In this document: one piece after another, positions 3,773 to 18,135 of the stretch
Position numbering within the stretch: position 1 is the first letter of the stretch
Layout: each line of letters opens with the position of its first letter
Source of the DNA: a virus
UHGV virus genome: UHGV-0139590
Length of the DNA stretch: 33,699 bases
Strand: one strand, 5' to 3'
Translations under genes and position numbers: made by a program
Notes under the pieces: model-generated
What the model saw: only the letters and a program-made list of their open reading frames with translations
Told to the model about the DNA's origin: nothing
The model's database searches: none

Positions 3773-5221
3773 ATGAGCATTAACGAGTTACTCGAAAAAT
3801 TTAACGGACTACTGGAAAAAAACACCTGGTGGGCGCGCTATGCCAACAGTCAGTTCATCCAGATGATGAGCATCTTCGGTTCGCAAATTATCTACGCAGC
3901 CCAGTCACACGCGCGCCGCGCGTTGGGGGAAGGCTTTATTTCCACCGCCACGCGACGCTCAAGTATTCTCGCTGCCGCCGAGGATCGGGGCTATGTGGGA
4001 CGACTGATTATCCCGTCGTGGGGTCGCGTCAAAATCCGCAACAAATCCGATCGGGAGATCCAGCTGCCCGCCAATGCGGAGTTATTGTCGTCGCTGGACC
4101 TGCCTTACGTGACCGCTGACGCCGTAACAATCCCTCCCGGCCAGACCGTAATTATTGATAATGTCCGCCAGATGGACAAGGTGCTGATCAGCAGCGTGAT
4201 CGACATTGCACGCCCGTTCTATACGTTGCTCCTGCCGCGTGATATCACCGCTGAAACCGCCTCAATTGACGTGTTTGTGGTGATGGACGGCGAGAAGCGG
4301 GAATGGACCTATAACCCTATGTTTCGTCTGTCACGCGCCACCAGCGAGCATTACGTGCTTGTGTACCGGCCAACTGAACAATTAGGGGTCCGCTTCGGGG
4401 ATAACTCATCCGGGGTAATGCCACCAGCCGGAAGCCGGGTAGATATTGAGGTCTGGTGCAGCAATGGCGACACCACGCTGGCGCAGGGCCAGAAACTAAC
4501 GCCTGCCGGGAATATCGCTGACATGGTGGAAATGCTGGAAGTGATCACGGAAACGCCAATCACCGGGGGAAGTGGTTTTGAAACCACGGAAGAGACACGC
4601 CATCGTGCGCAGTATCACGCCGCATATGACGAGCAGGTTGTCTGGGGCGGCGATTACCGCTATTTCCTTCATCGCCAGGTGCAGGGGATGTCATGGCTGA
4701 ATGTCTGGGGTGAGCAGCAGCAGGAAGCCTTTACCGGCCTGCGCGACCTGCGCAATATCAACACCATTTTCATTTGCGGCCACAAGCCCGGCGTGGCGCA
4801 GGATCAGCTCGAAAGCCAGCTGCGTGCCAGCCTGGCTGCAATCCCTAACGCACTGAATAAGAACTTCCGTTACATGCCGCTGGTGGCGAAACCGTTCACC
4901 ATCGTTGTGACCGGCACGGCCAATAAAAACGTGGTTATCAACGACGCGAAGAAAACCATCACGGAGACGCTGGAAGCACGCTTCGGGTATGACGCTGACA
5001 GCTTCGGGGATGAGCTGGAACGCGGCACGGACGGCGACGGCCAGAACGCTCAGGTGAAGATTAAAGATATCTGGACATGCATTGACGAGCTGGCCCTGCT
5101 GAACCGGTATGAGATTGAGGTTGTCGGCATGCGCAAACCCGAAACGCTGAGCGATTTTATCTATCTCGACACCGTAAATTCTGTGTTTGATATCAAGCAG
5201 GCAGGGGAGACAACGCGGTGA
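3773..5221 (+). CDS. Baseplate protein, J-like (482 aa)
   Basis: Long ORF following the gp25-like gene; stop overlaps the next start (GTGA). Function assigned by gene order only. Confidence 0.5.
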   Translation: MSINELLEKFNGLLEKNTWWARYANSQFIQMMSIFGSQIIYAAQSHARRALGEGFISTATRRSSILAAAEDRGYVGRLIIPSWGRVKIRNKSDREIQLPANAELLSSLDLPYVTADAVTIPPGQTVIIDNVRQMDKVLISSVIDIARPFYTLLLPRDITAETASIDVFVVMDGEKREWTYNPMFRLSRATSEHYVLVYRPTEQLGVRFGDNSSGVMPPAGSRVDIEVWCSNGDTTLAQGQKLTPAGNIADMVEMLEVITETPITGGSGFETTEETRHRAQYHAAYDEQVVWGGDYRYFLHRQVQGMSWLNVWGEQQQEAFTGLRDLRNINTIFICGHKPGVAQDQLESQLRASLAAIPNALNKNFRYMPLVAKPFTIVVTGTANKNVVINDAKKTITETLEARFGYDADSFGDELERGTDGDGQNAQVKIKDIWTCIDELALLNRYEIEVVGMRKPETLSDFIYLDTVNSVFDIKQAGETTR

Positions 5222-7404
5222 TCAAAGACTGGATTAAAAACCACCTGATCCCTGAGAAACGTGACGCCGGGTTATGGCCCGGTTTTACCGACGCACTCCA
5301 GGAAACCTACGAAGATCAGATAGAGCCACTGCTTGAGCGCCTAAGCGCGCGTAAATCGTTCTTCACCATGCACCCGGACGATCTGGATAAGCGCATCAAA
5401 GAGTACGGGCAGTTTTTCGTTATTGGTCAAAACGGCACGGCCAGCAGGCCCATTCTGCTGACCCAGCGCCTTGATGAGGTTCATTTTAAAGGGACGGATC
5501 AGCCCATCATTGCAACTTTCTGGCGCGAATTCGGTAATCTACCGGTTACGTGGGAACCGCTTTATGCGCCGGTTGACCAAGATTTATGCCCCTACGGCAT
5601 GTTTTTCACCACCGCTGCTGGAATGGAGGTAGCCGCCGCCTCATTCGGTGAGTTTTTCCTCACGTCGCGCGGCACCATCAGCGTGGATCTCAACCGGCTT
5701 TATGAGATATACGGCTTTGATGAACAGGACAAGCTGGTTAAGCGCCTTATCAGCGATTTTGACCGTATCGTTGCCCCATTGCTGCCGCTGGAAACCGTCT
5801 TTGACGGGATCTCGCTGCGTCTCGACTTCTGGCTTGAAGAGGCTCGCGACGAGATCGAAATCCTCAGCATCACCACCGGTTCGAAAGAGCCTAATTTTGT
5901 ATTCCGGCCAGCCCGGGAGCTGATGCAGTTAACGCGCACGACTATCAAGCATCCTACCGCCGCATTTGCCCCGGATCGGCGATCGCTGGATACATTTATG
6001 CTGACGCTGGACGGCATGCCGTCCGATGCCTGGCGACTTGATATGCCTGTGATTATCCCGCCTTTGCTTCCGGGAGGCCCTGAAAACGATCCGCGTCTGC
6101 GCTCGGATAATGCGCGCTTGCTACTGGATACCCTCGGCCAGTGGGGCTGCGTGATGGAACTGACTACCGGCGACGTTCGCCGCCTGGCCTTCCCGGGTTG
6201 GGCGCTTGCCGTGGTGCTGCCGGTTGCCGTCAGTGACCGGGCGCTGATCCGCAAAATCACATGGTGTAGTGAACACGACTCACAGCAGGTAATGATGTCC
6301 GCGCAGGATAACGGCCAGCAAATGACTGTTAAGGGGCAAAACGTTACCGCTTCGGCGACATTGCAGATCCCCGCGCCGATTATGGTGCTGGAAGGTGCTG
6401 TTACCCATACGCAAACCATCGTCAGTAGCTTGCTTGCCGATACTGAGAGCCAGCATATCGCCTTTGATGAAACCCCCGCTGATGCCTGGCCGCTGGATAT
6501 GCAGACCATCGCCGCGCCTATTCTTGGATCGCGCCCGGACCCGCGCTTAACCAGCCAGGGCGACACGACTTTGCTGGATACACTCGGGATGTGGGGTTGC
6601 GTCATTGAGCTGGCCGGGGGAGAGGTTCGCCGTTATGCCTTCCCGGGTTGGGCTGACCGGGTGACGTTACCCATGCCGCTGGCCGTGATCGTGAAAATAA
6701 CCTACAGCGCAGAGCATGAGATCGTGAATGCAAGTGCATCCGTTCAGGACCAGGAGCAGGGCGTGAGCCTCAAGCGGAAATCCGTTGTCACCCCGCAAAC
6801 CGTGGCGCAGGAAGAGGACGCGGCCAGTCTGAGTAAGGTCAGTACCGCCACCACGCCGGATGTGCAAGGGCAAACCGCCAGCACTGACTCGCTGCCGGTA
6901 GCCTTTGATGAAACGCCAGCCGATGCGTGGCGGCTTGATGTGCAGACTATCCCTGCGCCGGTAGTGCCGGGATCGCGCCCGGACACCCGCCTGAGCAGTG
7001 ACGGCACAAAGGTCACGCTGGAGACACTCGGCATGTGGGGCTGCGTCATTGAGCTGACCACTGGCGATGTATTCCGCTTCGCCTTCCCTGGATGGGCTGA
7101 CCGCGCCATTCTGCCGTTTGAAATAGCGCAGATCCGCAAAATCACCTACAGCAACGAGCAGGATATCAATTCCCTGAGCGCCAACGTGCAGGAGAAGTCC
7201 GACCAGACCAGCACGGCAACTACCCGCGCCACGTTAAATCAGTCCGTGACGGAAACCACAACGGAAATGACAGGCGGACAGACCACAGACCAATGGAGTG
7301 CCACGGCAGAAGTGAATAAACCGAACGTACAGCCAGACCCGGCAACCATTGACAGTATGCCGCTTGACGCGTGGCCGCTGGACCAGGAGATCCCGCGAGA
7401 GTAA
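5218..7404 (+). CDS. Tail/baseplate protein with three tandem ~145-aa domain repeats (728 aa)
   Basis: GTG start overlapping the upstream stop, GGGGAG 9 nt upstream. Three repeats share DAWxLDxxxIxxPxxxGxRPxxRLxSxxxxxLLDTLGxWGCVxELxxGxVRRxAFPGWA, plus a partial fourth copy at the C-terminus (DSMPLDAWPLDQEIPRE). Confidence 0.65.
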   Translation: MIKDWIKNHLIPEKRDAGLWPGFTDALQETYEDQIEPLLERLSARKSFFTMHPDDLDKRIKEYGQFFVIGQNGTASRPILLTQRLDEVHFKGTDQPIIATFWREFGNLPVTWEPLYAPVDQDLCPYGMFFTTAAGMEVAAASFGEFFLTSRGTISVDLNRLYEIYGFDEQDKLVKRLISDFDRIVAPLLPLETVFDGISLRLDFWLEEARDEIEILSITTGSKEPNFVFRPARELMQLTRTTIKHPTAAFAPDRRSLDTFMLTLDGMPSDAWRLDMPVIIPPLLPGGPENDPRLRSDNARLLLDTLGQWGCVMELTTGDVRRLAFPGWALAVVLPVAVSDRALIRKITWCSEHDSQQVMMSAQDNGQQMTVKGQNVTASATLQIPAPIMVLEGAVTHTQTIVSSLLADTESQHIAFDETPADAWPLDMQTIAAPILGSRPDPRLTSQGDTTLLDTLGMWGCVIELAGGEVRRYAFPGWADRVTLPMPLAVIVKITYSAEHEIVNASASVQDQEQGVSLKRKSVVTPQTVAQEEDAASLSKVSTATTPDVQGQTASTDSLPVAFDETPADAWRLDVQTIPAPVVPGSRPDTRLSSDGTKVTLETLGMWGCVIELTTGDVFRFAFPGWADRAILPFEIAQIRKITYSNEQDINSLSANVQEKSDQTSTATTRATLNQSVTETTTEMTGGQTTDQWSATAEVNKPNVQPDPATIDSMPLDAWPLDQEIPRE
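5990..7404 (+). repeat. Three tandem coding repeats (~440-480 nt period) plus a partial fourth
   Basis: Repeat units begin near 6010, 6456 and 6898; partial copy 7346-7404. Similarity is visible at both protein and DNA level. Confidence 0.7.
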
Positions 7405-7416
7405 TGCAGTTATAGT

Positions 7417-7457
7417 GTGTGACTGTCATATTGTAATACAGTCACACGCACCTTTTT
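7417..7457 (+). terminator. Perfect 10-bp inverted repeat (GTGTGACTGT-N11-ACAGTCACAC) followed 5 nt later by TTTTT; terminator or operator
   Basis: Lies 13 nt after the stop of the 728-aa gene. The T-run is separated from the stem by GCACC, so an operator is equally possible. Confidence 0.4.
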
Positions 7458-7490
7458 CTTGCCTTCCCGGGCAGGAAACCCCTCAACGTC

Positions 7491-7510
7491 CAAAGTACAG
7501 ACTCAATAAC
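7491..7510 (+). promoter_or_regulatory. Conserved promoter-like box, copy 1 (CAAAGTACAGACTCAATAAC)
   Basis: Matches boxes at 12045, 12443, 20413 and partly 25250. Located about 35 nt upstream of the tail-fibre operon start. Confidence 0.4.
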
Positions 7511-7544
7511 ATCCGATCGATGAATCAATCAACAGGAGTTGAAA

Positions 7545-8003
7545 ATGTCGGAAGTTATTTCTTATGCGTCAGCCACTGGCGCGCTCTATAAAGCACAACT
7601 GCTGGATTACTACTACACACGCCGCGCGGATTCAGCCATCGGTCTGGGTAAACGCTTCCAGATGATGAAAGCCTATTGGGGTAAGTCGAATCTGGTTAAG
7701 CAAAATCCGACTGGTGGCTGGACCATTGACGATATCCCTACCAACTTCACAAACGCCAATTTGCTGGGCAAGTTTGCCGAGTGCGATCTGATCTGTACCC
7801 GCCAGGGCGCAACCATCACCGTTAACGTAGTGCTGCCGGAAAGTAAGCTGCCTGCTAACGCCGTGTATGACTTCAATACCCTGACGCTGGTTGATGCTGA
7901 TGGCGTCGCTTTTGCGGTTCTCTGCGCGCAGCAGGACAGCATCTACAAAGGCAAGATTTACAGCATCCTTCTGACCATCGAACAGAAAGGTAGCGGCGCA
8001 TGA
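7545..8003 (+). CDS. Small tail-fibre-operon protein (152 aa), function unknown
   Basis: ATG 7545 with AGGAG 6 nt upstream (an in-frame TTG at 7539 is less likely). Stop overlaps the next start (ATGA). Confidence 0.6.
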   Translation: MSEVISYASATGALYKAQLLDYYYTRRADSAIGLGKRFQMMKAYWGKSNLVKQNPTGGWTIDDIPTNFTNANLLGKFAECDLICTRQGATITVNVVLPESKLPANAVYDFNTLTLVDADGVAFAVLCAQQDSIYKGKIYSILLTIEQKGSGA

Positions 8004-10096
8004 GTGAGACAATTAGCGGGGTATCCATCCTGAGCGCGGAAACCAAGCGCGCGCTGGTGGCCGACGTTCAGTTTTTTGAAACCTATACGTCCGCCGCCTT
8101 TAACCGCAAGATGCGCGGCATTGTTAAACCTGGTTTTTACGCCGGATTTGATGCCGTGCTGGCTGGCGGGCTTAAAATCAACATCACGTCGGCAAACGAA
8201 TCAGGAAAGCGCGGCGTAGCCTCCGTGGACGTGGGCGAATATCAGATTTCCGTCCAGCAGGTTGAAGATGTCGGCTTTACACTGCCAGCGGGCGCAACCA
8301 CGCGCGTGGTGCTGGAAGCCAACTATCAGAATGGCGTGAAAACAAACCAGGTTGATTCGAACTCCGGCATTCAGGCGGCGCGACTCTTCCTGGCAGATGT
8401 AAGCGTGGCGCTGGCCGGTAATCAGCTGGAGCTATGCCGCTTTACCGTGCCTGCCGGTACGGTAAATTTAACCCAGGCTATGCTGAGCAAGCAAAATCGC
8501 CCGGATAAATCCATCGGCATTGAGCTGAGCAACGACGCTGAAGGCAGTACCACCGAGGGCGATGCTTACAAAGCCGCCACCATCGCAGCACTTAAACGCG
8601 CACTGGCTCTTTCGGTACAGGCGCGGGGTGAGTTGCCCGATACTGCCAATCTTAACAAATACGGCCCTACGCCAGATCGTGTCGGTCAGTGGAGCAAGTC
8701 AACGGCAACCGGCGCGACCATCGTCAATGGCTACCCGGAAAATGACGCTATCGGGGTTGTTGAGGTGTCTAAAGCCGGTGCCTCGAATGGGACCCAGCGA
8801 TTCACTCTGGTAAATGGCAATGTTTATACCCGCTCACTGACCGCCGCATGGAATGGCGTGGATGGGCCGTGGGGTGCTTGGAATGCGCCGTATGAAGAAG
8901 CCCCATTCCCTGATGTATGGATTCCATTAAATGACAGCCTGACTATGCTTGCCGGTTTCGGCCCATATGACCGCATTACTTTTGGAGATCAATATGCCGA
9001 GCTGCCAACCCGTAGTGTAAAACTGACCCGCGCAACGACGGCAACGTATATCGACAAATCCGGTGTGCTACAGGTTGCAGACATCAACGAGCCGCGTTTC
9101 GAGAAAGAGGGGTTGCTGATTGAAGGGCAGAGCACCAATTTGCTCAGATGGTCATCACCAGTACAGACTTCAGGCACATTTCGAAATAGTCCAAATGTAG
9201 GAATTTCTTTCTTACCCGCTGGCGGTGTTGAGTTAACAAAAGAGGCGAGCACTGGATTTTGGTTCGAACAAAACACAGGGGCTACAGACTATGATCCTGC
9301 TAATTCTGCGGCATTATCTGTCAACCTGAAATTTAAGGACGGTTTGGACGTAAGGCTGCAACTTCTTCGTTATTCAAGCGAAGGCGATGTCGGCGTTGCG
9401 TCTATCTCCGCAGTCAACGGTCGTAATACATTATCTATACCGGTGGTCGGCGGCACAGTTTTGCAGCGTTTAGGTCTGCGCATCACAGTGGGTGATACTG
9501 TTCCAATTGGGGAGGTGGTGATTGTTGATCGTATGCAAATTGAGCCTCAGGCGATCGCTACTTCGTACATCCCAACAAACGGATCACCAGTAACCCGCGC
9601 GGCTGACAATTGCACCCTACCACGCTCAGGAAATGACAACTATTACGGTGAGTTTTCCTATAGCGTTGAGGTGCATGCTAACGGTTTAACTCAAACAAGT
9701 TCAGACGCAAATGACCGTAGACATATTCTCTCTATATTCCCTTCATCTACTGAATGGGTCATGAGCTACATGGAGCCATCAGCAGGCTCAACGGGTAAAG
9801 TGCGCCAGACCTATGGCCCCGCGACTTATATCCAAAGCTCAAAAGCAATAGATGATGGGAAAACGCATCTTGTGGCGTTCACAACGAACTTGATTAAAAA
9901 TGCCCTTACAGTGGATGGCAGCGAGGTCGCTATTGGGACACAAGTCAGACCGGTTCCAGGCTCAGTTTCTGCTATTAACCAACTTATTGTTTTGGGTGCA
10001 ACTTCCTCACCCACGCGCATGTTAAACGGCCACCTTCGCAATCTTCGCATCTGGCACAAAACGTTAACTCCTAATCAAATCAAAGGGCTCCGCTAA
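8000..10096 (+). CDS. Tail fibre protein with C-terminal LamG-like (concanavalin-type lectin) domain (698 aa)
   Basis: C-terminus LNGHLRNLRIWHKTLTPNQIKGLR fits the Laminin_G_3 pattern common in phage fibres. The central block (PFPDVWIPLNDSL...TATYIDKSGVLQVADINEPRFEKEGLLIEGQSTNLL) is shared with the downstream paralogue. Confidence 0.75.
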   Translation: MSETISGVSILSAETKRALVADVQFFETYTSAAFNRKMRGIVKPGFYAGFDAVLAGGLKINITSANESGKRGVASVDVGEYQISVQQVEDVGFTLPAGATTRVVLEANYQNGVKTNQVDSNSGIQAARLFLADVSVALAGNQLELCRFTVPAGTVNLTQAMLSKQNRPDKSIGIELSNDAEGSTTEGDAYKAATIAALKRALALSVQARGELPDTANLNKYGPTPDRVGQWSKSTATGATIVNGYPENDAIGVVEVSKAGASNGTQRFTLVNGNVYTRSLTAAWNGVDGPWGAWNAPYEEAPFPDVWIPLNDSLTMLAGFGPYDRITFGDQYAELPTRSVKLTRATTATYIDKSGVLQVADINEPRFEKEGLLIEGQSTNLLRWSSPVQTSGTFRNSPNVGISFLPAGGVELTKEASTGFWFEQNTGATDYDPANSAALSVNLKFKDGLDVRLQLLRYSSEGDVGVASISAVNGRNTLSIPVVGGTVLQRLGLRITVGDTVPIGEVVIVDRMQIEPQAIATSYIPTNGSPVTRAADNCTLPRSGNDNYYGEFSYSVEVHANGLTQTSSDANDRRHILSIFPSSTEWVMSYMEPSAGSTGKVRQTYGPATYIQSSKAIDDGKTHLVAFTTNLIKNALTVDGSEVAIGTQVRPVPGSVSAINQLIVLGATSSPTRMLNGHLRNLRIWHKTLTPNQIKGLR

Positions 10097-10380
10097 TGAG
10101 AGATCTGTATTTGCGTTTTGCTGATGCCGAAGAAATGCACCAGCAATTGACCGATTTTGGCTTCCAGGCGGATGAAGATCAGGGCGTTATTTATCACCCT
10201 GAGATCTGCCTTGATGTCGTTGGCGTTATCAGCACGGTGACAGGTGAAGACGAAGCGGCTGTATATGCCACCGAACCCGGTTTTCACGTAAACATTCGTG
10301 TGATTAATGATCAGTTGGATTTGTCGGGCTTAAGTGAATTCGCCGTTTACCCGAAGACCCCAGCTCGCGTGTGGGCGTAA
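10096..10380 (+). CDS. Small fibre-associated protein (94 aa), paralogue of 11703..11990
   Basis: ATG overlaps the fibre stop (TAATG). MRDLYLRFADAEEM...YHPEICLDVVGV...PARVWA closely parallels the second copy. Confidence 0.6.
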   Translation: MRDLYLRFADAEEMHQQLTDFGFQADEDQGVIYHPEICLDVVGVISTVTGEDEAAVYATEPGFHVNIRVINDQLDLSGLSEFAVYPKTPARVWA

Positions 10381-10389
10381 GGAAATATC

Positions 10390-11703
10390 ATGGCATTAAG
10401 AAAAGACTTTATTGAAATGAAAGAAGATGCTCCGTTCCCAGATGTCTGGGTGCCGCTGAGCGACAGTCTACGCTTGCTGGCGGGGTTGGCTCCCTTCGAT
10501 AAACAGATGGCCCACGACCCAGCATTGGAATTGACTTCAAAATCGGTGACGCTTACCCGCGCTTCTACGGCAACTTATATTGATAAAGCTGGTGTACTGA
10601 AAACAGCGGCGATAAACGAGCCTCGCTTTGAAAAAGAGGGTTTATTGATTGAGGGGCAGAGCACTAACCTCTTAATCAATAGCGAAGATCCAACAAAGTG
10701 GGGGACGTTTACTCTTTTAGACATTTCAACCCTTAGGGATGGCACGACACAGGCAGCGACGGTTAAAGGCACGGTAAATGCGACCAATGACACCAATAAT
10801 ATTTGGTTATGTGGTAGCCCCAGCCTTCCTGCCGTGGTGGGTGATGTATGGACCTTATCCGCACGTTTCAAGGCCTCCTCACATAGAGTTCGCCTCCGGT
10901 TTACCATCGACGGCGTGCAATTAGGTGACGTATTTTTCGACGGTGTTACAGGTGAGCAAGTCAGGGGTTTGTCCGGCGGCGTTACATACACTACAAAGCG
11001 GGGAAGCGACGGGTATATTTACGTTAGCGCCACAATCACAACGTCAATAGCGGGGTTGTTAGTCGGACAATTTTGGTTTAATGATGACGCACCAATTCCC
11101 GCTGGTTCGTTTGTCTGCCTGCAAACCATCCAGTTGGAAAAAAACGCAGTAGCAACCAGTTATATTCCAACGGGATCAGCCGCTGTTACGCGAGCTACTG
11201 ATGTCTGCACGCTTCAACGTTACGGTAACGACAACTACTTCGGACCCGTCACTTTTTCCGCAGAGATTCACCTTAACGGGAAAACTAACGCAGACGGTGC
11301 AATGACTTCTCGTCGAGGGATCATATCGGCTAAACCGTCATCAACAGAGTCTTACACGCTGATGTTGGCTACATCCGGCGCAAATGCAGGGAAACCGTGC
11401 TTTGGATACGGCAATAGTGATTTCGTCTACGGCTCTACGGGTCTTGATGATGGGAAAGGTCATGTTGTAGTCGCCAGATTTGACGGCTCTGACAAGTATC
11501 TGTGTTCAGATGGGGTAATGTCAGTAGGTCGCGCAGCAACTAAACCGGCATCAGGAAATGTGGATGCCACGAACCAAAATATCCAGATCGGTTACGGTGC
11601 TGCTTATGTTACGCCGGGGCACTCAGTGCTAAACGGCCACATTAGAAACATTCGTATCTGGCATCGCGCGCTTAATGATCGCCAAGTTAAAGGAATTCGC
11701 TGA
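10390..11703 (+). CDS. Second tail-fibre cassette with LamG-like C-terminus (437 aa), lacks the N-terminal ~290 aa of the first fibre
   Basis: ATG 10390 with AAGGAAAT upstream. Begins at the conserved block shared with the 698-aa fibre. C-terminus LNGHIRNIRIWHRALNDRQVKGIR. Confidence 0.7.
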   Translation: MALRKDFIEMKEDAPFPDVWVPLSDSLRLLAGLAPFDKQMAHDPALELTSKSVTLTRASTATYIDKAGVLKTAAINEPRFEKEGLLIEGQSTNLLINSEDPTKWGTFTLLDISTLRDGTTQAATVKGTVNATNDTNNIWLCGSPSLPAVVGDVWTLSARFKASSHRVRLRFTIDGVQLGDVFFDGVTGEQVRGLSGGVTYTTKRGSDGYIYVSATITTSIAGLLVGQFWFNDDAPIPAGSFVCLQTIQLEKNAVATSYIPTGSAAVTRATDVCTLQRYGNDNYFGPVTFSAEIHLNGKTNADGAMTSRRGIISAKPSSTESYTLMLATSGANAGKPCFGYGNSDFVYGSTGLDDGKGHVVVARFDGSDKYLCSDGVMSVGRAATKPASGNVDATNQNIQIGYGAAYVTPGHSVLNGHIRNIRIWHRALNDRQVKGIR

Positions 11704-11990
11704 TGAGAGATTTATATTTACGCTTCGCAGATGCGGACGAAATGCAGATGGTATTACTGGCCTTGGGTTTTCAGAAAGAAGAAGAGCAAGCCGGTCTTTA
11801 TCACCCTGATATCTGCCTCGATGTGGTGGGCGTTATGACCGAGCCTCAAAACCCGGAAGAAGAGAACCCTGATCTGATTGAGTTACCTGGCTATCATGCT
11901 AATGTGCGTGTCATTGACGATCAGCTGGATATTTCAGCGCTGGATGACTTCACCATCCACCCGGAAACACCGTCGCGCGTCTGGGCGTGA
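11703..11990 (+). CDS. Small fibre-associated protein (95 aa), paralogue of 10096..10380
   Basis: ATG overlaps the upstream stop (TGATG). Same sequence pattern as the first copy. Confidence 0.6.
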   Translation: MRDLYLRFADADEMQMVLLALGFQKEEEQAGLYHPDICLDVVGVMTEPQNPEEENPDLIELPGYHANVRVIDDQLDISALDDFTIHPETPSRVWA

Positions 11991-12015
11991 TGCACAGTTC
12001 TCCCCACATTAACAA

Positions 12016-12037
12016 AGCGCCTCCGGGCGCTTTTTTT
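12016..12037 (+). terminator. Rho-independent terminator (AGCGCC-TCCG-GGCGCT + T7)
   Basis: Perfect 6-bp stem, 4-nt loop, 7 T. An identical copy lies at 12414-12435. Confidence 0.65.
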
Positions 12038-12044
12038 GTACCCA

Positions 12045-12064
12045 CAAAACACAGACGCAATACC
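12045..12064 (+). promoter_or_regulatory. Conserved promoter-like box, copy 2 (CAAAACACAGACGCAATACC)
   Basis: Directly follows the terminator; about 25-40 nt upstream of the small membrane-protein gene. Confidence 0.4.
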
Positions 12065-12087
12065 TTCGGAGCGGGAAATTAAACACA

Positions 12088-12390
12088 ATGATGGGAGTAG
12101 CCATGAAGGATTTAACGCCGATTTATCACGCGATAGTCGCGGTTTTTGTGCAGTGCCTGATCGGTTTTATAACCGGCGCGTGGGGATTTGGTGGGGCGAT
12201 AGGCTGCGTGTGGTTTATTGCCCGCGAACATACCCAGGCGGAGTATCGCTGGATAGCTCGCTTCGGGAACGGTAAGCGCGCCAACATGCCGTGGTGGGGT
12301 GGTTTTGATTACAGGGTATGGAATATCGCCAGTGCCTTTGATTTTCAGGTGCCGGTGCTGGCCTGCATTATCGTTTACACCCTCACCTGA
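12088..12390 (+). CDS. Small membrane protein, possible holin/antiholin (95-100 aa)
   Basis: Three in-frame ATGs (12088, 12091, 12103). GGGAG sits 5 nt before ATG 12103 (MKDLTPIY...). Hydrophobic segments IVAVFVQCLIGFITGAWGFGGAIG and VLACIIVYTL. Bracketed by identical terminators. Confidence 0.5.
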   Translation: MMGVAMKDLTPIYHAIVAVFVQCLIGFITGAWGFGGAIGCVWFIAREHTQAEYRWIARFGNGKRANMPWWGGFDYRVWNIASAFDFQVPVLACIIVYTLT

Positions 12391-12413
12391 TCCCTTTATT
12401 CATATTTTATGTA

Positions 12414-12435
12414 AGCGCCTCCGGGCGCTTTTTTT
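12414..12435 (+). terminator. Rho-independent terminator, identical to 12016-12037
   Basis: AGCGCCTCCGGGCGCT + T7. Confidence 0.65.
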
Positions 12436-12442
12436 ATGCCCT

Positions 12443-12462
12443 CAAAACACAGACTCCATACC
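12443..12462 (+). promoter_or_regulatory. Conserved promoter-like box, copy 3 (CAAAACACAGACTCCATACC)
   Basis: About 38 nt upstream of the GTG start of the holin-like gene. Confidence 0.4.
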
Positions 12463-12499
12463 ATCCAGGCTCGAAGGGAAATTGAGAAAAGGTGGGAAT

Positions 12500-12814
12500 G
12501 TGTTCGAGTTGGAAACAAGTTTGATCCATGTCCTCGCCCTATCCCTTCTCAGTGGCTCCGGCGTGTTCCTGCATGGGGTGCGTGACGGAAGGATTAAGGG
12601 AAATTTCCTGAATTTTATCACTGAGTGGGTCCTGGCAGTGCTGGCTGGGCTGACAGCGTATTACGTCGCCCAGCATAAAGAATGGGAGCAAAGCCTGATG
12701 TATCTGGCGGTGCTGGTGGCGAGTAATAACGGGCGAGAAGTAACAAGTGCGCTTAAGGACCGATTTATTGCTGCAATGCAGTTTATGTTCGGTCCGAAAG
12801 GAGGTGAAAAATGA
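12500..12814 (+). CDS. Holin, lambda S-like class I (104 aa)
   Basis: GTG 12500 with AAGGTG 6 nt upstream. The longer ORF-track version (12299) runs across the terminator and promoter box, so is not used. Three hydrophobic segments and a KDRF...AAMQ C-terminus parallel lambda S. Confidence 0.55.
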   Translation: MFELETSLIHVLALSLLSGSGVFLHGVRDGRIKGNFLNFITEWVLAVLAGLTAYYVAQHKEWEQSLMYLAVLVASNNGREVTSALKDRFIAAMQFMFGPKGGEK

Positions 12815-13266: not shown

Positions 13267-13879
13267 CGGCTATGTAACCCTTAACTTTGACGAACTCAAT
13301 GTTAAAGGACTGGAAAAGCTTAAAAAAGCAGTCAGTAAGGCCGGTTATGAAGTCGTGAAGGTCACACCAGCAGGCCAGGCACGGCGCAAAGACGGTATTC
13401 CAACAAAAACCTTTGAGCTGAAAGGTATCGACGAGCAGGTAATGGTTGTTCAGGTCAATAACACTGGCGACATTTCCGGCATAAAGCTCAACGGCAAAAA
13501 CTCACCGTACACGCCTGTTAAGACTATGGCCGAGCTGGGAAAAGCACTGGCCGATTTGTTTAAGAAAGGCTCGACGGCGTTCCAAAAGGCCCTGGCGCGA
13601 AAGCTGGCCCGCGCGGCTAAAAAGGACCTCGATAAGGACAAGCCAAACACCAGCAAGGGTGTGAAATCCGGCGTCCAGATGCTCAGTGATGCCCGCGCTC
13701 GCCGTGATGCGCAGAAAGAGGCGATTGAGGCCGTTAATGAAAAACTCACCGCCCTGAAAACAGAGCAGGATATGACGCAGAAGGAGCACGGCAACCTGCA
13801 AAACGAGCTAAATCTGGAAGTGGCGAAAACAACTCAACTCCAGGACCTTATTGCTAAAGCGAAAGGCGGCAACGAATGA
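13235..13879 (+). CDS. Hypothetical coiled-coil protein (214 aa; start may be GTG 13253)
   Basis: Overlaps the upstream gene by 32 nt at ATG 13235. Alternative GTG 13253 has AGGGGG 7 nt upstream. Stop overlaps the next start (ATGA). Size is similar to P1 Hdf as recalled from memory (not verified). Confidence 0.5.
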   Translation: MSRGFSVSATNGYVTLNFDELNVKGLEKLKKAVSKAGYEVVKVTPAGQARRKDGIPTKTFELKGIDEQVMVVQVNNTGDISGIKLNGKNSPYTPVKTMAELGKALADLFKKGSTAFQKALARKLARAAKKDLDKDKPNTSKGVKSGVQMLSDARARRDAQKEAIEAVNEKLTALKTEQDMTQKEHGNLQNELNLEVAKTTQLQDLIAKAKGGNE

Positions 13880-16560
13880 TTGATTTAACGAAAGAGATTG
13901 AGTTAACTGACAAGCCAAACTTTGTGGCTCCGCCTCTTACTGATTCGGTTTACGCGGAGTTAATGACGGGCAGCAGCGCCGATATGATGCTGGAAAGTGT
14001 CACTATTGACGATGTGGATCATGCCTACCTGGGCGATGAAATGCTTTACGTCAGTATCGCCACTGGCAAAGCCATGTTCGAGGCCGTCACCAGTGAGCGC
14101 CTGCGCTTGTCACAGACTATGCGCGCGTTCGCGCGCTCGCTAAACCGTGGCCTGAACGGCACCGGCATCAAAGCGGGAACCGATGACGCCGGTATTGATG
14201 AAGAGGGGCGCAAAACCATTGGCGGCGCGATCATTGGCAAGGTTCGTCGGGTGAACAACATCCCGATCATGACCGCGCTAATTCCGCTCTCTGACGGGCA
14301 GTCTATCTCACTGATTTTCCATTCCCCGACAGCGGATAACGGACGCATCAAAAATAGCGATCTGCTGGTGGCGTTTCGCTTCCTGCTGAATAAGCGCGAC
14401 GTGACGCATATCGTTGCCCCGATTGGTGGTCGTGACGTGTCGTTGCAGCAAGTAAGCCAAGCGCTGGCGAACCTTGCCGAGCGTAACAGCGCGAAATTCA
14501 CCAAACAGCAATCCGCACAGGTGAAGCTGCGCGCTGATATTGAGGGGTTGAACGCGGAAGCGGACCAACTGAGCGAGCAGCAGTCCTCCCTCCTGGAACA
14601 GGTCGAGACACACCAGCAATCCCTGATGAATAGCCAGAGTGACGCGCAACAGCTGCGAGGCAAACTCGCCACACAGCGACAGATTAACGCCGAACTGGAA
14701 GCGCAGCTGGCCGCACTGAAAACGAACGCCGGCAGTGATGTAATTACGCTTCCGGGAGAGACTGGCCGCACCTTCTCTGACACTACGCGTAAGGTGAAAG
14801 AAGGGCTTTCCATGAGCGGCACCACCACGCTCAGCAATGGTGCGGAAGTGGCCTACAAAACAGCTGACGACAACGGCGATCTGGTGGGCTGGGTACAGAT
14901 TACCGATCCTTCCGGGCAGGTTTACAAAATGCCGTCATCGTCACCCCAGGGCGCAAAGATGGGCGAAACGGCAACCAAACTGCTGAAAGCCTACCGCGAG
15001 AACAAAGCGGATAAGTTTGCCGTGGCAGCACCGGTAGAACCGACCCCGGGAAGCGATGACACACAGCAGGGAGCAGGCGCTGATTTGCAGCAGTTGGTGG
15101 CCGTCATCGGTAATGGTCTGACAGACGCGGCAGCGGCTGACTGGGCGGCGAATAAAAAAGCCACGCCTGATTTTATTCGCTTCCTGATCCGCCAGTACGG
15201 CACCGCTGATGATAAAGCCAAACAGCGATTCGTTGAAGGGATCGAGAAGAGCTGGAAAATCAAGTTGCCGGGTACGGGCAGCGACAATCGGCTGGTGGCG
15301 AAACTGGCGCGCGATTACGTTGATAGCATGAAGCGGCCAACCGGCACTGATTTCCTCAACACCTATTTCATGGGCGAAGCGCCGAAAGCCAGCCAGAACC
15401 CGGTTTACGTTCCGCACGTTGAAGGCGGTGATTTCTTTGCAGCACCAATAAATACGGCCATAGATCGCTACCGCGAAGCGCTGCCAAACCCGAAATTGAA
15501 CAGTACCCTGAAAGAGCAGGCTAATTTCCTGATCCGTCTGGTCAAGGCCGAGAAAGATTTCGAAGGCCTGGCAGAGAGCGTGGAAGATGGTTTTGCACGT
15601 CTTGCTGACGGCTCAATATTGACGCTTGAAGACGGCAAGCTGTTATTGTCCACAACCGATGACGAAACGCACAATGCGAAATACTCCGTTGACGTTGGCG
15701 ATCGCGCCCTGGAGGAAGCCATTGAAGATCTGGTGAGTTCGTATCGTCTGGGTAACGTGGAATACATGACGCCGGAAAGCCGCGAGAAAAACAATCCTGA
15801 GCCGCCAAAACCCGTTAGCCAGCCATCACCCGGCAATTACCGCTATGCGCTGGTTAACCGCCCGGCAGGCCCGGCGACTATCCCGGAAGGCAATACGGCC
15901 ATCCTGCCGCCTATATCGCAAAACGAGCCGTATGGCCGCATCGCACGCCACGGTTTCGTAACGTATGACGCGCCGCTGTCAGACGCTGATATGGCCGCGT
16001 TTGAGCTGAAACTTATCCCTACGCATGCTGATCTTGATGCGCTGGCAACGACGATCGCTCAGGGCCGCATGAACAGTTACGCCGCTGAGTATCTGGAAAT
16101 GGCGACGGATGATGCCGATACGTTCCGCTCGCAGGTCAGTATCTTTGCCCGTAAAGACGCGCCTAACGTGGCATTCCCGCAGGGCGATGATCTGGCGTAC
16201 TTCCTCCAGGCGATGAAGGTTGCGCTGGCCGAGGCGGCGAAAACCCCGCCAGCAAAAGATACAGGCCCTGCCGAAGGAGAAGAAATTGTGAAAAAAGAGG
16301 CTTCCGAAGCCGCAGGAAGCGAAGAGCCATCCGAGGCCGATAAGGCAGCGAATGATGCGCTGGCATACCTGCAAAGCATCCTGTCATTGCAGTCAAAAGA
16401 TATGGGCGTTATCCGTGAAGCACGAACCAAAGTCCGTGGCGCGATTGGTACGCTCCAGGCAGCTGGCCGTGACGTGGATAATGAACCTCTGGTAAACGAT
16501 GCTGCGCAGCACCTTTCCGATCTGCTGGTGGCAATTCAGCGTGAAGGAGCAACCGCATGA
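13876..16560 (+). CDS. Large putative virion-internal protein (894 aa), DarA-like by position
   Basis: Long ORF with good codon structure and a central coiled-coil (EQQSSLLEQVETHQQSLMNSQSDAQQLRGKLATQRQINAELEAQLAALK). Function inferred only by analogy to the P1 darA operon, which follows lydA-lydB. Confidence 0.65.
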   Translation: MIDLTKEIELTDKPNFVAPPLTDSVYAELMTGSSADMMLESVTIDDVDHAYLGDEMLYVSIATGKAMFEAVTSERLRLSQTMRAFARSLNRGLNGTGIKAGTDDAGIDEEGRKTIGGAIIGKVRRVNNIPIMTALIPLSDGQSISLIFHSPTADNGRIKNSDLLVAFRFLLNKRDVTHIVAPIGGRDVSLQQVSQALANLAERNSAKFTKQQSAQVKLRADIEGLNAEADQLSEQQSSLLEQVETHQQSLMNSQSDAQQLRGKLATQRQINAELEAQLAALKTNAGSDVITLPGETGRTFSDTTRKVKEGLSMSGTTTLSNGAEVAYKTADDNGDLVGWVQITDPSGQVYKMPSSSPQGAKMGETATKLLKAYRENKADKFAVAAPVEPTPGSDDTQQGAGADLQQLVAVIGNGLTDAAAADWAANKKATPDFIRFLIRQYGTADDKAKQRFVEGIEKSWKIKLPGTGSDNRLVAKLARDYVDSMKRPTGTDFLNTYFMGEAPKASQNPVYVPHVEGGDFFAAPINTAIDRYREALPNPKLNSTLKEQANFLIRLVKAEKDFEGLAESVEDGFARLADGSILTLEDGKLLLSTTDDETHNAKYSVDVGDRALEEAIEDLVSSYRLGNVEYMTPESREKNNPEPPKPVSQPSPGNYRYALVNRPAGPATIPEGNTAILPPISQNEPYGRIARHGFVTYDAPLSDADMAAFELKLIPTHADLDALATTIAQGRMNSYAAEYLEMATDDADTFRSQVSIFARKDAPNVAFPQGDDLAYFLQAMKVALAEAAKTPPAKDTGPAEGEEIVKKEASEAAGSEEPSEADKAANDALAYLQSILSLQSKDMGVIREARTKVRGAIGTLQAAGRDVDNEPLVNDAAQHLSDLLVAIQREGATA

Positions 16561-16925: not shown

Positions 16926-18135
16926 GTTCGCCGGTCGAAATCACAGCGTTTTATCCGTAATAGATTCAACGTTTATAAGGATGAACGGTTATTGACATCT
17001 TCCCGCCCTAAAGGATGGGGATTCCTACAGCCAGACGGCGATGCCCCGCCGCGAGAATGTTCTTTGCGGCGTTTACGTCGCGGTCGTGAGCGGTTCCGCA
17101 CTCACAACAAGTCCAGTCTCTTATTCGCAAGCCTGCTCTACCTTTCGGACTGTTAGCGGAGATAGCCCCGCAACACGAACAAGCCTGGGTGGAATATTTT
17201 TCGTTAACGACTTCGAACACTACCGACCGCGCAATCGCTTTGTATTTCAGTTGTGTTTTGAGCATGAACCAGCCAGCGTCCAGAACGCTTTTAGCCATTT
17301 TGGTTTTAACCAGTTTCTTACTGCTCACGTCGCCTACGAATATTGCCGCATGGCTGTTTACCAGTGCCGTGCTGTACTTATGCAGTGCATCTTTGCGGCG
17401 GTTCTTAATTTTGGCGTGAATGGCGCGTACGCGGGCTTTTTTGTTCGCCCTCTGCGCCTTGCCTAATGCGGGTTGCAGGTCACGATAAAACCTACCTGCA
17501 ACCAGTGGATCACCCTCTGACGGGGTGGCGTAGTCCTTTAATCCCAGATCTATGCCGATAGCTGTTATTCCCGTTGTCGGGGTGGTTTCGACTTCTACGC
17601 AGACATTGAAATACCAGCGCCCCCGACTATCTTCTGAAAAGCTACCGGCGCGGAATTTATAACCCGCCAGTCCGTAGCTATCCCACACCTTAAAATAGTG
17701 GCCTGCGAACTTGACGCAGCCATTTTGCCATTGCGCCTGCTTCGATTTAAACGGCACCCAGCCCAGAGAACGGCGAGCTCCGCCACTGACACGCCAGCGC
17801 AGACGCGAGCGTTTAAACTGCTTCCGCGCTTTGCCGTGGTCTGCGATCACTTCCTGCACCGTGGCGCTGCCGATGATATAGCCGCGCTCTTTCTGAATAC
17901 CTGCCGTCATCTTCTGAACGTCGAACGCCGACAGCCAGCGGGGAATTTGCGCACCAAAAGCGCCAGCGTTGCTGTATGCCTCGCTGGTTATCTCGTTTGC
18001 CAGATTAAAGACCTGATTGACCTCAAAGGCCATCTGCCGCAAAACGGCGGCGTGGCGGTCTTTAACCCGGACGGATAATGTTTTGATGCGCGTATTCATG
18101 CTCATTACTCCCGCCCGCAGGCGGGAGCCTCCGGG
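16926..18135 (-). mobile_element. IS200/IS605-family insertion element carrying only tnpB (IS1341-like); boundaries approximate
   Basis: Single TnpB ORF, with a perfect 8-bp stem / 4-nt loop hairpin (18108-18127) immediately upstream of its start, as in subterminal left-end hairpins of this family. No tnpA and no terminal inverted repeats, as expected. Confidence 0.6.
17008..18105 (-). CDS. tnpB: TnpB (IS605 OrfB-family RuvC-like, RNA-guided nuclease family), 365 aa
   Basis: RuvC-like motifs GIDLGLKDYATPSEG and HDRDVNAAKNIL; zinc-finger cysteines CSCCG...CCECG near the C-terminus. ATG 18105 with GGGAG upstream. Confidence 0.8.
   Translation of the reverse strand: MSMNTRIKTLSVRVKDRHAAVLRQMAFEVNQVFNLANEITSEAYSNAGAFGAQIPRWLSAFDVQKMTAGIQKERGYIIGSATVQEVIADHGKARKQFKRSRLRWRVSGGARRSLGWVPFKSKQAQWQNGCVKFAGHYFKVWDSYGLAGYKFRAGSFSEDSRGRWYFNVCVEVETTPTTGITAIGIDLGLKDYATPSEGDPLVAGRFYRDLQPALGKAQRANKKARVRAIHAKIKNRRKDALHKYSTALVNSHAAIFVGDVSSKKLVKTKMAKSVLDAGWFMLKTQLKYKAIARSVVFEVVNEKYSTQACSCCGAISANSPKGRAGLRIRDWTCCECGTAHDRDVNAAKNILAAGHRRLAVGIPIL

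Follow-up and report, generated by a model that had tools for sequence, protein, structure and literature searches.

A second, anchorless fibre-tip cassette in the tail-fibre operon of a P1-like phage and its probable role as an add-on receptor-binding protein

Bacteriophage P1 switches its host range through DNA inversion and is the classical example of this strategy: P1 and the D6-like phages carry an inverted, start-less alternative tip (Sv'-U'), together with the Cin invertase, between the gene U and the lydA holin gene. A 33,699-nucleotide (nt) stretch of the UHGV virus genome UHGV-0139590, the whole of which is hereafter called the window, raises the question of what a second tip does in such a phage when it is not inverted. 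Between positions 8000 and 11990 the window encodes a 698-amino-acid (aa) tail fibre (S1) and a small protein (U1), followed by a 437-aa fibre-like protein (S2) and another small protein (U2). All four open reading frames (ORFs) are present on the plus strand as described in an earlier sequence-only reading of this DNA. We consider it fairly likely that S2 is expressed separately and serves as an add-on receptor-binding protein, in analogy to the branched fibres that LtfA and LtfB form in T5-like phages, and the particle probably shows two host-recognition heads at once.

The features on which the argument depends are the following (related loci are designated by numbers preceded by L):

7545–8003, plus strand: gene R, the first gene of the fibre operon, whose stop overlaps the S1 start (PHROG 2032; Pfam Phage_P1_tail_fiber_R in identical loci)
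8000–10096, plus strand: S1, the 698-aa anchored tail fibre, an ORF matching the PHROG tail-fibre families 454/2631/5454 over aa 11–204 and 1419/5939 over aa 299–696
8000–8893, plus strand: constant part of S1 (aa 1–298), a P1-S-type anchor plus a knob- or collar-like segment, defined by PHROG matches and absent from S2
8894–9181, plus strand: neck of S1, the block shared with S2 (aa 299–394), which starts EEAPFPDVWIPLNDSL, is 66% identical to S2 aa 12–107 and has a mosaic breakpoint at its 3' end
9116–9604, plus strand: beta-sandwich of the GTA-head-spike-fibre type in S1 (aa 373–535; NCBIfam NF048003), hypervariable, with an allele swap in L005
9644–10084, plus strand: LamG-like C-terminal domain of S1 (aa 549–695; Pfam PF13385, E 1.6e-9), with an allele swap in L006
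10096–10380, plus strand: U1, a 94-aa accessory protein, an ORF of PHROG 1361/18574, which have no assigned function
10378–10383, plus strand: Shine-Dalgarno-like TAAGGA, read off the sequence, 6 nt before the S2 ATG and overlapping the U1 stop
10390–11703, plus strand: S2, the 437-aa ORF of the putative anchorless receptor-binding cassette (PHROG 1419 over aa 14–434)
10390–10431, plus strand: N-terminal peptide of S2, MALRKDFIEMKEDA, a candidate docking peptide whose MA(L/I)RKDxI motif is kept in short S2 alleles
10423–10710, plus strand: neck of S2, the shared block (aa 12–107), which matches the S1 neck and combines strong constraint with a low predicted local distance difference test score (pLDDT)
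10645–11196, plus strand: domain of the GTA-head-spike-fibre type in S2 (aa 86–269; NCBIfam NF048003, E 2.6e-26), with a phmmer match to Rcc01080 of the gene transfer agent RcGTA (PDB 6TB9)
11242–11688, plus strand: LamG-like C-terminal domain of S2 (aa 285–433; Pfam PF13385, E 3.1e-7)
11703–11990, plus strand: U2, a 95-aa paralogue of U1, an ORF (mean identity in the family alignment 67%)
12014–12040, plus strand: intrinsic terminator, the first one 3' of U2, closing the R-S1-U1-S2-U2 operon

The product of R has been assigned the role of the P1 tail-fibre R or baseplate wedge protein (PMC9024508). A scan for terminators and promoters detected no terminator between the two cassettes and no sigma-70-like promoter ahead of S2, and each U gene starts with a one-base overlap of the preceding stop codon, in the form of TAATG at the S1/U1 junction and TGATG at the S2/U2 junction. 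We propose that R, S1, U1, S2 and U2 would be transcribed as a single late operon, within which S2 would be translated from its own ribosome-binding site. The production of S2 as a U1-S2 fusion through stop-codon readthrough was also considered and rejected: U1 and S2 have a common reading frame in three cases (the window, L015 and L016) but are out of frame in L017 and in pE1_003, a complete related plasmid.

The two fibre proteins had been thought to share a conserved central block at about 8890–9140 and 10420–10680, and our alignments placed this block close by, at nt 8894–9181 in S1 and nt 10423–10710 in S2 (E 2e-36). Its isolation did not survive the comparison: in a multiple alignment the homology is continuous over the entire cassette, running end to end from S1 aa 299–698 to S2 aa 12–437 with a hypervariable middle, and a second block (S1 aa 501–698 against S2 aa 236–437) aligns at 41% identity (E 2e-44). 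Both proteins do end in the LamG-like domains proposed for them, the Laminin_G_3 profile scoring 38.6 bits in S1 and 31.1 bits in S2 against a gathering cut-off of 27.6, and GTA_spike_fiber (NF048003) was detected in the middle of both (51.2 and 93.3 bits, respectively; cut-off 36). Likewise, the genes with overlapping starts that follow each fibre gene are genuine paralogues (U1 and U2 are 56% identical, E 2e-40), and S2 is devoid of the N-terminal region of S1, about 298 aa that include the P1-S-type anchor matching PHROG families over aa 11–204. The closest full-length relative of S2 is a 572-aa fibre of other Leclercia contigs (69% identity) and not S1. Given that the necks are about 70–75% identical at the DNA level and that their synonymous sites are saturated, the S1 and S2 cassettes appear to be old paralogues or independent acquisitions and not the outcome of a recent duplication.

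From its gene content, the window can be recognized as part of a P1-like phage-plasmid of Leclercia. Searches with Pfam and PHROG identified P1-like genes for LydB, DarA_N/DarA_C, a ddrB-ParB domain, a T4-type portal, the P1 Gp16 core and P1 R, and the P1-specific structural, lysis and anti-restriction genes are arranged in the P1 order sit, bplA, 16, R, S, lydB, darA, ddrA, ddrB and darB-like. The contigs with this gene set measure about 85–89 kb. Proteins identical to S2 are encoded on contigs of 82–87 kb, two of which belong to NCBI genome assemblies; the S1 variants of these two carry Leclercia adecarboxylata protein names. Among complete records, two Leclercia plasmids come closest, at 95% identity in R and about 80% at the DNA level. 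A megablast search of positions 7500–12500 against plasmids returned only two Leclercia records, with matches limited to R and the S1 anchor, and the same search against GenBank phages gave no match. A scan with the S1 anchor recovered no relative from genome contigs and one locus from viral contigs.

Both cassettes lie in direct orientation, and the statement of the sequence-only reading that no cin/gin-like recombinase is present in the window held among the large ORFs scanned, which include no serine invertase (Cin/Gin/Hin) and no resolvase; the sole recombinase-like ORF codes for an IS605-family TnpB. A repeat search of 7400–12600 found no cix-like inverted repeats flanking the cassettes, and the single inverted repeat in this interval is a 15-nt pair with 87% complementarity situated inside S2 and U2. 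The only recombinase genes of pE1_003, for a Tn3-family resolvase and a tyrosine recombinase, lie at a distance from its fibre genes. The corresponding slot between U and the holin gene of a D6-like E. coli plasmid shows the order R, S, U, inverted U', inverted Sv', recombinase and holin, and Pantoea and 'Acinetobacter' relatives have one cassette in the same slot. Because the D6-like plasmid has U'-Sv'-recombinase in this slot, S2-U2 together with M, a small gene 3' of U2, occupies the position of the invertible half-segment. The likeness to the C/G segments of P1, Mu and D6 (Sc with Sv/U versus Sv'/U', with Cin/Gin) extends to the slot, which lies between U and the lysis/dar operon, to a second tip without the constant N-terminus and to a small downstream gene for each tip. 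The locus differs from these segments in its direct rather than inverted arrangement without invertase or cix-like repeats, in the start codon and Shine-Dalgarno sequence that S2 has of its own, and in the use of a GTA-spike-fibre plus LamG tip with a PHROG 1361 accessory protein instead of Caudo_TAP. The TnpB gene mentioned above (OrfB_IS605 with a Cas12f1-like TNB domain; 17008–18105, minus strand) lies between ddrA and the ddrB-like gene, and is absent at the same position in L005, L006 and L007.

Is the cassette in this slot still in use? Between the window and L017 the ratio of nonsynonymous to synonymous substitution rates (dN/dS) is 0.16 over S2 as a whole, 0.025 over its aa 1–107 (dS 0.32) and 0.14 for U2, indicating strong purifying selection. 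The constant part of S1 has values of 0.05–0.06, and S1 aa 1–381 are 74% identical to the fibre of pE1_003. Every relative of the sub-clade that was recovered (L004–L009, L015, L016, L017, L018 and L022) has the layout S1-U1-S2-U2-M, and the S2 alleles of these relatives are 94, 78, 43 and 40% identical to that of the window. All short S2 alleles start with MA(L/I)RKDxI, followed by the neck. The same arrangement is seen in pE1_003 with a 980-aa S2 that starts with MSVRVDTI, is free of the P1-S anchor and has an N-terminal half matching internal stretches of other fibres. Phages with identical S2, which are otherwise 97–99% identical, differ in S1: the middle domain is swapped in L005 and the LamG domain in L006, and the breakpoints of these swaps sit at the ends of conserved framework segments. 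As alleles change at both S1 and S2 within a kept layout, both positions are best seen as actively diversifying receptor-binding genes. At least as far as sequence can tell, S2 is a live gene and not a silent spare.

The cassette itself is composed, in order, of a conserved PFPDVW neck, a beta-sandwich of the RcGTA-head-spike-fibre type and a LamG-type beta-sandwich. The C-terminal ~430 aa of three kinds of fibre align with S2 over 96–97% of its length, at 33–35% identity, namely T5-like lateral fibres (e.g. LtfA of Bas32 IrisVonRoten), Dhillonvirus fibres and the side fibre Stf of phage 21. A U homologue of about 92 aa is encoded 3' of the cassette in phage 21 and Bas32, with a homologue of M next in line in phage 21. 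The Stf of phage 21 and mEp460 and the Dhillonvirus fibres share with our locus the ~430-aa cassette (33% identity over 97% of S2) and the ~92-aa downstream gene, and phage 21 also the membrane protein M (60% identity), but they have one cassette only, always fused to an anchor. Among database homologues the cassette, always from the P.PDVW motif onward, is joined to about 10 unrelated N-terminal anchors of 90–560 aa, and the family comprises 5589 cluster representatives at E<=1e-3. The neck motif is near-invariant in 49 homologues, with P15, P17, D18, V19, P22, D25, G32 and other residues being invariant, and the 3' end of the neck is a recombination junction between genomes. The G+C content is 48–49% over 9000–12000 versus 53–63% in the flanking structural genes, which fits a horizontal acquisition of fibre tips. 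The cassette thus described appears to be a widely exchanged receptor-binding module. The suggestion that the shared block is a special docking domain between S2 and S1 is not supported, as the same neck, together with the first strands after it, is found in every member of the cassette family, including those of the single-fibre phage 21 and the T5-like phages.

Only one relative identifiable by sequence has a solved structure, the RcGTA head spike fibre Rcc01080, which was matched to S2 aa 49–280 in a phmmer search. An AlphaFold2 monomer model of S2 has a mean pLDDT of 77; from about aa 84 on it shows two beta-sandwich domains with confidence. The closest folds to this model are laminin LG pairs and sialidase lectin domains, and the fold search also returned chains of ~500 aa from baseplate/tail-fibre reconstructions of the Pseudomonas phages Pa193 and E217 (template modelling score ~0.36). 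The pLDDT is below 50 for most of aa 1–80, the stretch holding the invariant residues of the family. Since the low pLDDT coincides with the invariant residues and with the lowest dN/dS, this segment fits a predicted interface that would fold only within an assembly. The cassette is a lectin-like module that, by analogy with homologous lateral fibres of T5-like and other coliphages, may bind O-antigen or capsule glycans. The BASEL study attributed the binding of O-antigen to the homologous lateral fibres, and reported that lateral fibres can consist of one or several polypeptides and that Bas32 infects K-12 with a restored O16 antigen (PMC8594841). PADLOC returned no defence-system match for S2, U1, U2 or M.

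How might a protein without an anchor be mounted on the particle? A separately docked S2 is plausible because of three precedents, namely the peptide attachment of Rcc01080, the existence of anchorless cassettes elsewhere and the branching of LtfA/LtfB. In RcGTA, residues 2–10 of Rcc01080 alone hold the protein on the particle, the rest being a flexible capsule-binding unit (PMC7296036). It resembles S2 in its homologous beta-sandwich, in the short N-terminus preceding a lectin-like domain (PDB 6TB9 and related structures), in attachment by a ~10-residue N-terminal peptide and in the binding of capsule polysaccharide. It differs in being attached to the head instead of the tail, with one subunit per pentameric base, and has neither a LamG second domain nor the PFPDVW neck (the alignment begins from S2 aa 49). 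Complete anchorless cassettes with N-termini of 12–26 residues occur at least nine times in the best 150 cluster representatives. In the metagenomic locus L026 (2–5246) two anchorless cassettes come after an anchored fibre. Each of the two has a TAAGG of its own and begins 9 nt past the stop before it, and a single U gene ends the array. In L028 (4672–9042), from an unrelated metagenomic phage, an anchorless cassette with its U gene is part of a multi-fibre locus, beside other anchorless fibre fragments and Tfa-like chaperones.

The third precedent comes from LtfA and LtfB, which form branched lateral fibres in DT57C (PMC4728585, PMC10713586). As in the window, DT57C and DT571/2 (and phiEco32 with gp14/gp15) have two tandem co-oriented fibre genes, and only the first product is anchored. 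The second probably rides on it, with receptor-binding tips on both proteins and a simultaneous dual specificity, much as we propose for S2; moreover, in Bas32 the tip of LtfA belongs to this very type of LamG cassette, and a U-like gene comes after it. The differences are that LtfB has an N-terminal docking region of about 45 aa, shared with phiEco32 gp15, and a long shaft, as opposed to the 14 residues that precede the module in S2; that the second protein is here a paralogue of the tip of the first fibre; and that ours is a P1-like myovirus and theirs a siphovirus. By the mechanism we envisage, S2 would join the virion non-covalently by means of its short conserved N-terminal peptide and/or the neck, with the S1 shaft or knob, Gp16 or R as candidate partners, so that every particle would display two glycan specificities at once, as opposed to the alternation seen in P1. 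Several points weigh against this proposal. There is no recognizable docking domain in the 14 residues before the neck, and BLASTP found no similarity between S2 and LtfB of the T5-like Bas32, the comparison being with this LtfB only and not with phiEco32 gp15. The proposed attachment region, aa 1–80, has low confidence in the monomer model. The 8-residue N-terminal motif is conserved in no more than a handful of alleles, which are related, and only about 4 of its 8 residues are identical in the long S2 of pE1_003.

U2 would, in the same scheme, help S2 to fold. That the U proteins are cassette-specific assembly factors is a natural guess, given that U genes accompany the cassette in phage 21, T5-like phages and metagenomic loci, and the L026 array suggests that one U could serve three cassettes. 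U1 and U2 display no sequence or fold similarity to known Tfa proteins (Caudo_TAP, Tfa or P1 U).

S2 could also reach the virion if the S1 and S2 chains co-folded through their necks and C-terminal domains into hetero-oligomeric tips, with S2 being carried on the S1 anchor. Such mixed assembly would agree with a neck that is 66% identical between S1 and S2 and is the most conserved and constrained part, yet is of low confidence as a monomer, as an interface between chains would be, and with the same type of C-terminal domain being present in S1 and S2 in all eight phages compared (window, L005, L006, L015, L016, L017, L022 and L001). However, these eight phages amount to about five independent lineages, for which the chance of such concordance is estimated at ~0.04, and shared descent or the need for a common U chaperone would be an equally good reason for it; the hypervariable middles cannot be aligned, and anchorless cassettes exist without a preceding anchored cassette (L028). 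We regard mixed assembly as unlikely. As to the types themselves, a long C-terminal form with LNGHIRN(L/I)RIWH is seen in 6/8 phages and a short one with YHVRNFRIWH in 2/8, the middle domains being freely mixed. Alternatively, S2 might be no virion component at all but a soluble lectin, made late and freed at lysis, which could for example coat receptors on debris or neighbouring cells. The absence of a recognizable anchor, the two lectin-like domains and the action of the RcGTA homologue as a single subunit are all compatible with such a role. Nevertheless, S2 lies inside the fibre operon with translationally coupled neighbours, diversifies in a modular way like S1, has only virion fibres among its characterized homologues and is most strongly constrained in the N-terminal peptide and neck, for which a free lectin would have no need, making this explanation quite improbable.

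The sequence-only reading had also raised a spare module that a deletion between the shared blocks could have fixed: recombination between these would remove the S1 tip and U1 and fuse the S1 anchor to the S2 cassette, amounting to an irreversible host-range switch. Direct repeats of 116 nt and 154 nt do flank the interval, and in-frame ltfA-ltfB fusions have arisen in the T5-like DT530 (PMC4728585). However, the DT530 precedent needed identical sequences in both genes, whereas the repeats here are only 73–75% identical; the necks match over 116 nt at about 70–75% identity, with exact runs of ~11 nt, and synonymous sites between the blocks are saturated. Among the 15 S1-anchored database proteins, the identity of the cassette to any S2 allele does not exceed 49%, and no variant joining the S1 anchor to an S2-type cassette was seen among them. 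S2 also keeps its own start, Shine-Dalgarno sequence and an N-terminal peptide under selection, all of which leaves the spare module with very little credibility. Equally far-fetched in our estimate is that S2-U2 is a relic, the former Sv'-U' fixed in direct orientation after the loss of cin and devoid of present-day function. It would explain the slot shared with Sv'-U'-cin of the D6-like relatives and the lack, in S2 as in Sv', of a constant part, but it is at odds with the purifying selection on S2 and its own start, with the exchange of divergent alleles into the slot, and with a cassette type unlike the Sv of P1 and D6, for which the chaperones are of the Caudo_TAP type. The other alternative offered in the sequence-only reading, that the second cassette is a separately expressed receptor-binding protein, stands as the best-supported one, by virtue of its own Shine-Dalgarno sequence and ATG, the uninterrupted operon, the selection on S2, the kept layout and the anchorless cassettes elsewhere.

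Two neighbours of the fibre genes and a more distant gene are also of note:

5218–7404, plus strand: Gp16 baseplate protein (PHROG 2015 over aa 1–276; Pfam Phage_P1_Gp16 in identical loci)
12103–12390, plus strand: M, a small protein, homologue of a phage 21 protein annotated as a membrane protein with two transmembrane domains (60% identity; PHROG 1443)
13876–16560, plus strand: DarA-like head protein

Gp16 is 728 aa long versus 281 aa in the D6-like relative, and consists of the P1 Gp16 core (aa 1–262), three tandem repeats of about 150 aa (aa 263–414, 415–561 and 562–715) and a terminal P.DAW.LD motif. Relatives differ in the number of repeats: the D6-like plasmid has none, a Cronobacter contig a single copy, pE1_003 two and the window type three, and the two-fibre phages have 2–3. 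The likeness of P.DAW.LD to the PFPDVW.PL.D of the cassette neck was dismissed as chance, BLASTP having returned nothing significant. The phage 21 homologue of M is encoded 3' of the homologous fibre cassette, and M is 72% identical to the pE1_003 copy. The M gene lies between two 89%-identical copies of a unit made up of the terminator and a CACAAAACACAGAC box (12015–12067 and 12413–12465), in the manner of a moron insertion, and its product may be an exclusion or receptor-masking factor that travels with the cassette. The DarA-like protein, compared between the window and L005–L007, L015, L017 and L021, measures 894, 900, 1021, 775 or 418 aa among near-identical phages, which suggests a second hot spot of modular change.

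Phages with multiple receptor-binding proteins, branched fibres and the modular exchange of fibres are already known. What is newly seen here is the apparent replacement of a P1-type invertible half-segment by a direct, independently translated cassette, in which S2 is cut down to 14 residues plus the neck and the domains that follow it. A broader generalization, which is speculative and to our mind rather unlikely, would make anchorless PFPDVW-neck cassettes a general plug-in class of receptor-binding proteins, attached to a fibre or baseplate already present by a short lineage-specific peptide plus the neck, and here replacing Cin phase variation with constitutive dual display, with the Gp16 repeats as a possible docking platform. 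If a 14-residue peptide and the neck suffice to mount a lectin module on a virion, the host range of P1-type transducing phages could be engineered through a very small handle. In practice little would be gained, since there is ample documentation of multi-fibre phages and of modular fibre exchange. Close relatives with a constitutively expressed second receptor-binding gene in one and the same genomic slot would moreover mean that, in evolution, bet-hedging through inversion and the display of two specificities at once can stand in for each other.

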